Part shown: positions 2,496 through 52,552 of the stretch, in pieces | Position numbering within the stretch: the first letter of the stretch is position 1 | Layout of the letters: each line of letters starts with the position of its first letter | Source of the DNA: Escherichia phage a20 | Strand: one strand, 5' to 3' | Length of the DNA stretch: 64,000 nt | Sequence record: OQ067374.1 | Notes under the pieces: generated by a model | Databases searched by the model: none | Told to the model about the DNA's origin: nothing | The model's input: only the letters and a program-made list of their open reading frames with translations | Program-made: the position numbers and the translations under genes

Positions 2496-3211
2496 TAGTC
2501 AAGGAATCCTTTAACATAATCAAAATCACGTTCAAACACATGGGCACTTACCATGGTATGAGTATAATCACCAACTTCTACACCACATTCGTTAGCGATA
2601 TAATGAAGTAATTTTCCTTGGAGATAAAAATCCAACTGCATAACAACAGCACAGTTCTGAGAACGCATATGACAGTGGGTATAAAGCTTACCATCACGAA
2701 TATAATAAGTCACTGAGTCAGTACATGGATATTCAAGAGTTTCGTCCGAATCAAGCAAAGCCTGATCAGAACTTTCTAGAATTTGGAACACAACTCTTCG
2801 AGAGTTAGGCTTCTCTTTAAGTTCTTTTAGAAGAGCTGGTAATTGGGCCGCAATGCGAGGACCATAGAAAGTGTTGAAGTTCGCCGGCAAAACATCTGAT
2901 TTTGGTTTAGAAATAAATTTAGCGACATTAGGATATGCCTTAAACGCTTCTTCTGCGTTGGTACCACCAGAAATCATAAACTTCCAGAAGTCTTCGGCAT
3001 ATTCATAAGAGATGCGGTTAATACGTGGGTCAGTCATTTTGAATGATGATGGAGTGTCAACAACTACTGTCATAGACCCAATTTCATTACAACGTCCAAT
3101 ACGAGAATCAGTTACGAATTCCGGGTTTTCTAAAATTTCACGATTGACTGCTTTAAATGCGGTTTGAAAATCTGCGGCTTTGATATATTTCATTGTGTTA
3201 TGTTTTCCCAT
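2495..3211 (-). CDS. 42: deoxypyrimidylate hydroxymethylase (thymidylate synthase superfamily, gp42-like, divergent)
   Basis: 238 aa; SRRVVFQ ... YPCTDSVTYYIRDGKLYTHCHMRSQN resembles the catalytic-Cys region of T4 dCMP hydroxymethylase; syntenic with gene 42; GAGGT precedes the ATG. Confidence 0.65.
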   Translation of the reverse strand: MGKHNTMKYIKAADFQTAFKAVNREILENPEFVTDSRIGRCNEIGSMTVVVDTPSSFKMTDPRINRISYEYAEDFWKFMISGGTNAEEAFKAYPNVAKFISKPKSDVLPANFNTFYGPRIAAQLPALLKELKEKPNSRRVVFQILESSDQALLDSDETLEYPCTDSVTYYIRDGKLYTHCHMRSQNCAVVMQLDFYLQGKLLHYIANECGVEVGDYTHTMVSAHVFERDFDYVKGFLD

Positions 3212-48352: not shown

Positions 48353-48394
48353 GTTGCTTTTCCTAAGTTAATTAACTTATCTATTTATTATTAT

Positions 48395-48425
48395 GCCAAA
48401 AAGCCCCAACCTTTCGGAAGGGGCT
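48395..48425 (-). terminator. rho-independent terminator (third copy of the hairpin family)
   Basis: AGCCCC-AACCTTTCGGAA-GGGGCT (plus 48402-48425) with GCCAAAAA on its plus-strand 5' side; separates the RNA-gene region from the internal-protein gene. Confidence 0.55.
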
Positions 48426-48477
48426 AAGCCTTGCGGCAACCTTGTCGGGGTTTCCACCTGCTAAGGCAAGTGTTTGT

Positions 48478-48569
48478 ACGAAACGCCGGGATTCGAACCC
48501 GGTTATTAAGCAGTTGACGCTACTCAATATTTTTAAAAGGCCATATCTCGACCATATCCGAACGTTCCG
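48478..48569 (-). ncRNA. tRNA-like element / possible stable RNA or tRNA remnant
   Basis: Minus strand has a canonical T-arm CCGGG-TTCGAAT-CCCGG and a 3' acceptor strand CGTTTCG that can pair with CGGAACG about 85 nt upstream, but the D and anticodon arms do not fold canonically. Confidence 0.3.
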
Positions 48570-48737
48570 TCAAAAACGCTACTCGGCTTACGGCAAAGAT
48601 ATTTCCTCGAATCGATAATTCTGTGCGCCGTTTCTGCTGTGATGTAAGGGGATATTAACAAATCGTAAAGATTTATTAAGACCAGTCCTTACTCAGGGAA
48701 CATCAGTCCGACGACTTACCGGTAGCGACCCGGCTTC

Positions 48738-49082
48738 TTATTTTGGCATATCATCAATTTGCTCTCGACGCCGACGCCATAGATTAATCGCTTCATTAAC
48801 ACATTCGGCGTTTGGTATATGACGGCAATAATATAATGATTCGCGTTTCTGGAATCGATGTTGCAATGGGATTTCGTTTAAAAGGTCTTTACGGTCAAAG
48901 TATTCAAAACTAGTTAACCCGTAACGATTTTTAATGAACTTCCAATGTCCAAATTCATTTTGAACATAAATGTAATCGGCATGCTGATACAGCGAATTAA
49001 TCAATCGATGAGAAATAACTGTATCATATTCGTTAAAATAAAACGTTAAATCATGAACTACCAGATAAATATTGCCTTTCAT
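48738..49082 (-). CDS. hypothetical protein
   Basis: Track ORF 48738..49130 would overlap the tRNA; start set at the internal ATG at 49082 (MKGNIYLVVHD) with GAGGAAAAT upstream. Confidence 0.5.
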   Translation of the reverse strand: MKGNIYLVVHDLTFYFNEYDTVISHRLINSLYQHADYIYVQNEFGHWKFIKNRYGLTSFEYFDRKDLLNEIPLQHRFQKRESLYYCRHIPNAECVNEAINLWRRRREQIDDMPK

Positions 49083-49100
49083 ATTTTCCTCACTTAAAGT

Positions 49101-49177
49101 TGGTCGAGACAGAAGGATTCTAACCTTCAACCTACGGATTAGAAGTCCGTTGCTCCATACAATTGAGCTATGCCTCG
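49101..49177 (-). tRNA. tRNA-Arg (anticodon TCT)
   Basis: Hand fold of 77 nt: acceptor CGAGGCA/TGTCTCG, D-stem GCTC/GAGC, anticodon stem ACGGA/TCCGT with loop CTTCTAA, T-stem GAAGG/CCTTC, discriminator A, encoded CCA; T-loop is TTAGAAT (non-canonical). Confidence 0.65.
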
Positions 49178-49183
49178 AATATA

Positions 49184-49257
49184 TGACCCAGACCAGATTC
49201 GAACTGGTAACCTTTCCCTTATGAGGGGACTGCTGCTAACCATTGAGCTACAGGGCC
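49184..49257 (-). tRNA. tRNA with CAT anticodon (Met, or Ile if lysidine-modified)
   Basis: Hand fold of 74 nt: acceptor GGCCCTG/CTGGGTC (one mismatch), anticodon loop CTCATAA, T-arm ACCAG-TTCGAAT-CTGGT, no encoded CCA; D-arm imperfect. Confidence 0.5.
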
Positions 49258-51817: not shown

Positions 51818-52552
51818 TTACCTTAAGATTGTTTCAATTTTAGAATAAAGCTCTTCTAAAGAGCCGTCGTTTGTAATAACTAAATCGCCTTCTTCAATAG
51901 GCAACCCAGCTTCTGTAATATGTTTATCTGTGGATTCCGTACCAGAGCGAACCACATGAATAACTGTAGCACCCATCGCTCTAGCGGTTTCCATTTCATG
52001 GACTTGGCGTGTATCGGTTACAACATAGTAATCGAAATCACTTCCAATATAATCCATATAGTTTAATGCAAAAAGTTTAACCCAATACATACGGTCAAAT
52101 AAATTAACGACAACATCCGTACCGAGGGCTTGCATAAGACGGCGGATTGACCATGTGTCGTTGATATTATTTATAGCTTCACGCAGGGCTTCATATGGTT
52201 TAATATCTAGATATGAATACCCACCTTCTAATGATGATAATACTTTAACATTATTAATTGGTAAATATTGACTTTGTAAATAAATTAGCGCTTCTTCCAT
52301 TAATTCAATAACATCCAACTTATTGAGATTTAATGGTGTTTCACGGTCGTATCCAATGCCTTCAAAGTATTCGTATTTCAACTCTGTGAATACATCAGGA
52401 TCTTCAGCATGTTTACGTCCCCAGGCTATTGCTAGAGCGTCTTTAATCGGATATGCCAATTGGTATTTTACGGATTTAAAGTTTGAATTGATGTAATCAG
52501 CAGTAGTGTCTTTACCACTACGTTTGATGCCACTTAAAAAGATTAGCTCCAT
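51818..52552 (-). CDS. 1: deoxynucleoside monophosphate kinase
   Basis: 244 aa; LSGIKRSGKDTTAD P-loop and strong match to T4 gp1. Confidence 0.93.
   Translation of the reverse strand: MELIFLSGIKRSGKDTTADYINSNFKSVKYQLAYPIKDALAIAWGRKHAEDPDVFTELKYEYFEGIGYDRETPLNLNKLDVIELMEEALIYLQSQYLPINNVKVLSSLEGGYSYLDIKPYEALREAINNINDTWSIRRLMQALGTDVVVNLFDRMYWVKLFALNYMDYIGSDFDYYVVTDTRQVHEMETARAMGATVIHVVRSGTESTDKHITEAGLPIEEGDLVITNDGSLEELYSKIETILR

Follow-up and report, generated by a model that had tools for sequence, protein, structure and literature searches.

The window analyzed here, i.e., the whole stretch of DNA under study, comprises 64,000 nucleotides (nt) from Escherichia phage a20 (sequence record OQ067374.1), and we focus on a cluster of RNA genes on its minus strand, at positions 48,395–49,257, above all on the small RNA gene rnaC. 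Judging from its sequence, the window belongs to a Mosigvirus, an RB69-like relative of phage T4: it was 100% identical to Escherichia phage BEU50 and 98.4% identical to vB_EcoM_SA79RD (classified as Mosigvirus), with Mosigvirus genomes spanning 98–100% identity (megablast). Read along the minus strand, the cluster consists of two transfer RNA (tRNA) genes, tRNA-Ile(CAU) and tRNA-Arg(UCU), followed by an open reading frame (ORF) of 114 amino acids, rnaD, rnaC, and a terminator-like hairpin.

The rnaC homolog lies at 48477–48615 on the minus strand (139 nt by the T4 annotation, with ends uncertain by 1–3 nt). Read from 48615 to 48477, it aligned base for base with T4 NC_000866 70908–71046, with 137 of 139 positions identical (98.6%); the T4 record describes this feature as “small, stable RNA; species 1 RNA” and gives it 139 nt, and the record of phage RB59 names it rnaC. 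Together with rnaD, it shares with T4 its sequence, gene order (tRNA-Arg, then rnaD and rnaC), strand, lengths, and downstream hairpin region; these are the same genes. An initial annotation, made from the letters and without database searches, had marked a third, tRNA-like element at 48478–48569 next to the two tRNA genes, and had suggested that it was either a tRNA remnant or a stable small RNA of the kind known from the T4 tRNA region. The latter suggestion was right, given the near-identity to T4 rnaC at the same position, but the extent was not: by this alignment, the 92 nt of the element correspond to the 3′ two-thirds of a 139-nt unit (48615–48477). The same annotation held that a failure to detect any RNA from the element would count against it. 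The homologous T4 RNA has been detected, RNAC and RNAD both being classed as late RNAs and both confirmed by Northern blot (PMC9697503), and by analogy rnaC of this phage would likewise be a discrete stable RNA.

A blastn search for distant matches with positions 48380–48740 as query returned ~810 phage records, including the RB59 match that carries the annotations rnaC and rnaD, and rnaC was conserved in about 770–810 records from ~8 genera. For comparative analysis, 33 distinct homologs were gathered from a phage collection, IMG/VR, and metagenomes, representing Tequatrovirus, Mosigvirus, Dhakavirus, Moonvirus, Karamvirus, Kanagawavirus, Gelderlandvirus, and Marfavirus. A covariance model of the family gave 118–164 bits for true copies and 162.3 bits for the single copy in the window, and no score for any of the loci in soil metagenomes and bacterial genomes that had matched a pattern by chance. 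Specifically, 11 of the 22 loci recovered from metagenomes with a loop-free pattern were genuine rnaC, adding no new loop variants, and the other 11 were high-GC soil coding sequences without a T-arm, i.e., chance matches. A scan of the genome collection gave 11 loci from unrelated bacteria, none of which matched the covariance model; two matches of the first IMG/VR pattern (L013, L016) were due to chance, and a 27-bit covariance-model match in L011 was a tRNA-Gln plus part of a tRNA-Asn. No sequence similar to rnaC was found in E. coli genomes by blastn, and no host or prophage counterpart was found.

Rfam 15 yielded no family for rnaC or rnaD, whether searched at gathering thresholds or at E ≤ 10. 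The best match of the tRNA-like element was tRNA-Sec (16.6 bits for a gathering score of 47, E = 3.6), and this and the other weak matches (isrK, 16.5 bits on the opposite strand, and snoRNA models) were at chance level. In line with the initial view that the element is not a canonical tRNA, it was called neither by ARAGORN nor by the Rfam tRNA models (RF00005, RF01852), and it has no D-arm and no 5-bp anticodon stem with a 7-nt loop. ARAGORN found no transfer-messenger RNA (tmRNA) in the window, and no Rfam tmRNA match was obtained. In public records, rnaC appears under various labels: as “hypothetical protein” ORFs, as “tRNA-OTHER” or “tRNA-Lys”, or with its T-arm marked as a “rho-independent terminator”, as in SA79RD, where a terminator is annotated at 3137–3163 of locus L037, i.e., window positions 48476–48502.

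Comparison of the 33 sequences showed rnaC to be, on the evidence of covariation, a conserved and highly structured RNA of 138–142 nt with cloverleaf topology. The proposed pairs were formed in 91.0% of the alignment cells, vs. 37–42% when the partners were slid, and 31 of 54 pairs changed on both sides in the covariance-model alignment, a value attained by 0 of 500 shuffles. Taking MAFFT and covariance-model alignments together, 90–91% of the cells were paired vs. 37–44% after sliding, and 29–31 of the 54 pairs changed on both sides. Single-sequence folds of divergent rnaC versions independently reproduced the same architecture, and the minimum-energy fold reached −50.2 kcal/mol (z = −4.55).

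With rnaC numbered 1–139 from 48615 to 48477, a terminal stem of seven positions joins the true 5′ and 3′ ends (2–8 with 131–137; 5′ strand CGAUUCG at 48614–48608, 3′ strand at 48485–48479), in the order C-G, G-C, R-Y, U.U, U.U, C-G, G-C. Pair 3 was A-U in 14 and G-C in 19 of the 33 sequences, pairs 4 and 5 were U.U in all 33, and the other four were invariant C-G or G-C. A 3-bp junction helix (P2; 9–11 with 76–78) then takes the position of a D-arm, and between its strands lies a long hairpin (P3; 14–73, 48543–48602) with the apical loop UUGACG at 48573–48568. Both-side changes were found in 5 of 6 apical and 14 of 20 lower P3 pairs. P3 exists in two versions of unrelated sequence, yet the insert between the P2 strands invariably measured 64–66 nt (33 of 33 sequences), i.e., length is kept rather than sequence, and the apical loop is conserved though the stem sequence is not. 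After the junction helix comes an A-rich linker of 7–10 nt, and the anticodon/variable-arm position is taken by a 10-bp hairpin (P4; 87–112, 48504–48529) with the loop CGUCAA at 48519–48514, which is always 26 nt long and changed on both sides in 9 of its 10 pairs. Finally, the T-arm (114–130, 48486–48502) reads CCGGG-UUCGAAU-CCCGG and runs into the 3′ strand of the terminal stem and a tail U-A-C-A (48478–48475); the initial annotation had correctly seen a perfect T-arm followed by an acceptor-like 3′ strand, CGUUUCGU. The T-loop was UUC-R-A-N-N in 31 of 33 sequences, with variation there confined to positions 57, 59, and 60, and the middle T-stem pair was G-C in 16, U-A in 15, A-U in 1, and U-G in 1; T-loop and 5-bp T-stem are genuine. 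The 3′ tail was U-ACA in 28 sequences and U-CCA in the 5 of Marfavirus type.

Some copies depart from this scheme. Two copies of the Kanagawavirus eclm group (L004 700–846 and L022 315–461) have the T-loop UGCAUGC in place of UUCGAAU, and in the same two copies the first G of a conserved GG (rnaC 74–75) is replaced by C. This may be a hint, from a single lineage, of a tertiary contact between T-loop and GG like the G18–Ψ55 contact of tRNA. In the copy of Klebsiella phage VPA32 (L006 701–846), complementarity between the arms extends to 15 nt (AAAGUAGUUGACGCU with AGCGUCAACUACUUU), because of which its minimum-energy fold is one long arm–arm helix rather than two hairpins. Two further ideas found no support and were dropped: a U.A.U triple in which the A-rich linker would join the U.U mismatches, and a pseudo-T-loop within the 5′ GGUUCGAGG.

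The apical loops of P3 and P4, UUGACG and CGUCAA, are perfect reverse complements of each other. This loop pair occurred in 28 of the 33 sequences and the pair UUGGCG/CGCCAA in the 5 Marfavirus-type ones, i.e., the loop–loop pairing was 100% paired, with a central A-U in 28 sequences and a central G-C in 5; the predicted loop duplex energies were −5.5 and −7.6 kcal/mol, respectively. Given this complementarity and covariation, a six-base-pair kissing (loop–loop) contact between the hexaloops is most likely, which would close the body of rnaC and leave no anticodon-like loop free. The five copies with the compensated loop pair (L019, L025, L026, L027, and L057) are also those with an encoded CCA tail.

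In phages KM16, VPA32, KaAlpha, EnA02, and Melville, rnaC sits exactly between tRNA-Trp and tRNA-Gly, with spacers of 5–7 nt, and in Entb_45 it directly follows a tRNA-Met. RNase P and other tRNA enzymes recognize the 12-bp stack that acceptor stem (7) and T-arm (5) form in a tRNA. The seven-position terminal stem of rnaC, stacked on its 5-bp T-stem, would thus be a substrate for the enzymes with which the host matures its tRNAs. Cleavage by RNase P would create the 5′ end of rnaC and, as a by-product, the 3′ end of rnaD; the 3′ end of rnaC would be trimmed by exonucleases, and the CCA-adding enzyme and enzymes that modify the T-loop may also act. By this route rnaC would be excised from tRNA precursor transcripts and thereby be stable. 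From the acceptor/T-arm stack and the position between tRNA genes, we infer that rnaC is excised and stabilized as if it were a tRNA.

The rnaD (T4 species 2 RNA) homolog was placed at 48622–48741 on the minus strand by alignment to the T4 and RB59 annotations. It is 87.5–88% identical to T4 and RB59 rnaD and lies between tRNA-Arg and rnaC; the initial annotation overlooked this second structured RNA within its own interval. In the T4 and RB59 records, rnaD (“species 2 RNA”, 119 nt) comes directly after tRNA-Arg and is followed by rnaC. Across 12 rnaD homologs, RNAalifold gave 30 pairs, 8 of them with compensatory changes that fall mostly in a variable long hairpin, and the invariant parts are a 5′ hairpin (48734–48718; 5 bp, loop GUCGCUA) and a closing helix (48715–48709 with 48630–48623); the single-sequence fold had z = −3.2. 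The 3′ tail is not conserved, being CAG in the window, CCA in T4, and CCG elsewhere (the 3′ end is ...GCGCACAG here and ...GCGCACCA in T4). When lines of the T4-like phage BW-1 were adapted to ECOR34, a relative bacterial growth measure went from 0.17 to 0.98, and the only single-nucleotide polymorphism (SNP) common to three independent lines fell in rnaD (PMC12685909). The coordinates in that study place it ~73 nt into rnaD, within the variable hairpin, a hint of a host-specific role of the rnaC/rnaD locus.

The distribution of rnaC was examined against that of its neighbors. It is absent from JS10 (Dhakavirus; 778–910, L003) and from two further records, in which rnaD and the hairpin region that normally follows rnaC are retained, and another Dhakavirus, LHE83, carries both rnaD and rnaC. 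In the present phage rnaC is retained with only two tRNAs, and in PEi26 and Kosakonia 305 no tRNA was found within the fetched flanks. Because it is kept where tRNAs have been lost and is missing from JS10, rnaC is selected for its own sake, yet accessory. Overall, the best joint explanation, to which we assign a probability of about 80%, is that the interval is the tRNA/stable-RNA cluster of an RB69-like T4 relative, including the classical T4 rnaD and rnaC, the latter with the structure and the processing described above.

As to what mature rnaC does, we can offer a speculative proposal that we hold to be tentative at best, i.e., that it acts in trans as a tRNA mimic, binding or titrating a host tRNA-binding factor to a host-specific, non-essential benefit. 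Candidate targets would be defence nucleases directed at tRNA, or enzymes of processing or modification. If both loops are engaged and no anticodon-like loop is free, recognition by shape, as in a protein-binding tRNA mimic, would for that reason be expected rather than antisense pairing. Slightly more doubtful still is the fuller version, in which rnaC would be a tRNA decoy whose acceptor/T-arm end is accepted as tRNA and whose arms are locked by the kissing contact, titrating a host tRNA-directed factor, with rnaD working together with it.

Several points weigh against these interpretations. The covariance-model alignment is fitted to the model structure, the MAFFT alignment agreeing with it nonetheless. 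In the terminal stem, covariation comes from one pair only, four of the seven being invariant, and rnaC G8 could pair with U79 instead. The kissing contact draws on one compensatory event in one clade (Marfavirus), with loops otherwise invariant, and the same complementarity could serve pairing between two molecules. Architecture and gene context are the grounds on which the mature ends, cleavage by RNase P, the addition of CCA, and modification of the T-loop are proposed. In nature, rnaC is dispensable, since some natural phages such as JS10 lack it. The BW-1 SNP could be a standing variant of the stock, and it sits in rnaD rather than rnaC. Finally, the functions of RNAC and RNAD are given as unknown in a 2010 review (PMC3014915), a 2022 study of the T4 transcriptome and proteome (PMC9697503), and a 2025 experimental evolution study (PMC12685909), and a role as tRNA mimic is speculation next to these; a literature search for processing papers from the 1970s–80s and for any functional study of rnaC or rnaD found nothing usable.

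The alternative that survives best, though we consider it unlikely, is that rnaC and rnaD act only in cis, as structured spacers or 3′ stabilizers for the processing, termination, or stability of the tRNA transcript, and that the released RNAs are inert by-products. Without exception, both genes are found inside tRNA clusters or at their end, JS10 does without rnaC, one relative's record labels the T-arm as a terminator, and a terminator-like hairpin does follow: small hairpins fill the region after rnaC (48398–48476, minus strand), which ends in the hairpin GCCCCUUCCGAAAGGUUGGGGC at 48424–48403 and UUUUU at 48402–48398 (fold of 48390–48478, −33 kcal/mol, z = −2.3). Transcription of the unit probably ends at this hairpin and U-run (48424–48398), although internal U.U mismatches kept the hairpin from being called in a strict terminator scan. 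The rnaC T-arm itself is followed by CGUUUCGUACAAAC rather than by a U-run, and the scan found no terminator there. Furthermore, a spacer would need neither invariant complementary loops, nor an arm of conserved length (64–66 nt), nor a genuine T-loop; PEi26 and Kosakonia 305 have kept rnaC with no tRNA next to it, and discrete RNA species accumulate in T4.

Very improbable, by comparison, is a decaying tRNA gene, i.e., the remnant that the initial annotation had entertained, here taken as one of a tRNA with a long variable arm of which only the T-arm and the 3′ strand of the acceptor are left, without a function in its own right. Besides the perfect T-arm and the acceptor-like 3′ strand, such an origin would account for the weak 16.6-bit tRNA-Sec match, for the “tRNA-OTHER” label chosen by some annotators, and for the fact that the only cross-matches of the rnaC covariance model are real tRNAs, chiefly class II tRNA-Ser (24–27 bits), with P4 on the variable arm. 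However, the parts that are not tRNA-like are the most constrained: the hexaloops are invariant or co-vary, compensatory changes occur in 9 of 10 P4 pairs and in 5 of 6 apical P3 pairs, arm lengths are fixed, and the 31 compensatory pairs among 54 place these arms under structural selection. Moreover, the gene is conserved in those 770–810 records across ~8 genera, is kept where the tRNAs differ or are absent, and gives a discrete stable RNA in T4. The covariation largely refutes the remnant reading. The cross-matches are compatible with an ancient origin of rnaC from a class II tRNA, and an origin from a tRNA is plausible.

Even less probable is the fold implied by the coordinates of the initial annotation, in which a self-contained tRNA-like RNA of ~92 nt (48570–48478), of Sec type or class II-like, is closed by an 8-bp acceptor stem of ACGGAACG (48570–48563) with CGUUUCGU (48485–48478). 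In sequences of T4 and RB69 type, each of the eight pairs is either standard or G-U, and the Rfam tRNA-Sec model aligns in this way. However, none of the eight changed on both sides, and among 29 homologs individual pairs were disrupted in 16, 10, and 6. The 5′ nucleotides of this helix show covariation with the other strand of P3 (5 of 6 pairs), and the strand 48485–48479 pairs with the real 5′ end at 48614–48608 instead. The acceptor pairing is also absent from the minimum-free-energy fold, and the 139-nt RNA of the T4 annotation has its start 45 nt further upstream. Where it can form, i.e., in T4/RB69-type copies, the 8-bp pairing (48563–48570 with 48478–48485) competes both with the terminal stem and with the pairs at the tip of P3; unconserved in other genera, it is either due to chance or a lineage-specific alternative conformer.

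That the region encodes small proteins instead can be dismissed, despite mechanical ORFs at 48381–48527 (minus strand, 48 amino acids), 48533–48661 (minus strand, 42 amino acids), and 48442–48618 (plus strand, 58 amino acids) and “hypothetical protein” features beneath the match in many GenBank records, because homologs vary by 1- and 2-nt indels (linker 7–10 nt, total 138–142 nt) and the long hairpin has been swapped for one of equal length and fold but unrelated in sequence, in addition to which stem substitutions are pairwise compensatory and T4 annotates an RNA.

The other members of the cluster lie upstream of the two small RNAs on the minus strand. The two tRNA genes, read by the initial annotation as a tRNA-Arg (TCT) and a CAT-anticodon tRNA, were both recovered where it had placed them: ARAGORN reported the anticodons tct at 49101–49177 and cat at 49184–49257 (labelled “Met”), both on the minus strand, and the Rfam tRNA model (RF00005, gathering score 29) scored them at 67.6 and 54.0 bits, so that covariance models do find tRNAs within 49101–49257. 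CCA is encoded in the tRNA-Arg gene and not in the CAT one. Because the CAT tRNA matches the T4 gene annotated as isoleucyl-tRNA at 73 of 74 positions, it is best read from its sequence as the AUA-reading tRNA-Ile (tRNA-Ile2, lysidine-dependent) rather than as tRNA-Met; the T4 annotation (NC_000866) states that tRNA-Ile(CAU) decodes AUA after modification of C34. In the records of relatives, this gene is labelled tRNA-Ile in some and tRNA-Met in others. The non-canonical features noted at first sight are real, the Rfam alignment confirming the Arg T-loop UUAGAAU and flagging three non-standard pairs in the CAT tRNA (6–67, 13–22, and 27–43). The tRNA-Arg resembles that of JS10, not that of T4. 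Its T-loop A56 occurs together with G18–U19 in the D-loop, and the JS10 homolog has G19/C56; this comparison suggests that A56/U19 is a tertiary pair with compensatory change and not a defect. In neither tRNA do these features argue against function.

ARAGORN found exactly two tRNA genes in the whole 64 kb, compared to eight in T4, i.e., two of the eight T4 tRNAs are present, and the homing endonuclease gene segB, which lies between tRNA-Ile and tRNA-Arg in T4, is absent. This reduced layout is identical to that of RB69. The 114-amino-acid ORF (48738–49082, minus strand; RB69ORF150c family) has the same position in RB69 and SA79RD. It matched phrog_3355, a PHROG of unknown function (E = 2.5e-50), and had no Pfam match; searches of Pfam and PHROGs assigned no function to any of the three flanking ORFs. 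In T4, tRNA-Arg and rnaD abut, the 5′ end of rnaD adjoining the CCA of tRNA-Arg, whereas in the present Mosigvirus this ORF separates them. Since its stop codon (48740–48738) overlaps the first bases of rnaD as defined in T4, the 5′ end of rnaD must arise differently than in T4. No T4 late-promoter motif (TATAAATA) adjoins the cluster, the nearest on the same strand lying at 52175–52168. In tRNA clusters of other Tevenvirinae, gaps of 200–350 nt between tRNAs have no annotated ORFs or only tiny ones (L004 926–1210, L006 1102–1315, and L005 1102–1453), and these could hold additional unannotated stable RNAs.

Compared to canonical and class II tRNAs such as tRNA-Ser, rnaC has in common a seven-position acceptor stem continuous with a 5-bp T-stem, a UUCRANN T-loop, a tail N-(A/C)-C-A, four arms in the same order, and a place in tRNA operons with spacers of 5–7 nt. 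It differs in having neither a D-loop nor a 7-nt anticodon loop, with a hairpin of ~64 nt at the D-arm position, a 10-bp stem with a 6-nt loop as the other arm, and two U.U mismatches in the acceptor stem. In tmRNA, the 5′ and 3′ ends also pair into an acceptor/T-arm module and the remainder replaces the anticodon side; the ends of rnaC form such a module likewise, but it has no tag reading frame, no G3:U70, and no pseudoknot chain, and is ~140 rather than ~360 nt long. The bacterial Y-RNA-like YrlA, viral tRNA-like structures, and mascRNA, all non-coding, mimic a portion of a tRNA that includes the T-arm, and so engage tRNA enzymes. The ends of YrlA form a Ro-binding stem and not an acceptor stem, whereas those of rnaC form an acceptor-like stem. 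The Rfam YrlA model did not match rnaC, its only weak match (14.7 bits) being on the true tRNAs.

Taken together, rnaC and rnaD are already known, as the species 1 and 2 RNAs of T4, here found in a Mosigvirus, and T4 species 1 RNA was among the first phage small RNAs to be sequenced. What the present comparison adds is a covariation-supported structure of rnaC, a co-varying loop–loop contact, and the picture of a tRNA-operon passenger that is probably processed like a tRNA. In most relatives rnaC is unannotated or mis-annotated, and it is absent from Rfam; a family covariance model would allow correct annotation of ~800 T4-like genomes. The comparative structure also makes the old question of rnaC open to concrete experiment. 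If the tentative decoy proposal were true, two RNAs that have gone without explanation since the 1970s would gain a function and a testable structure, and an RNA family missing from Rfam would be defined.

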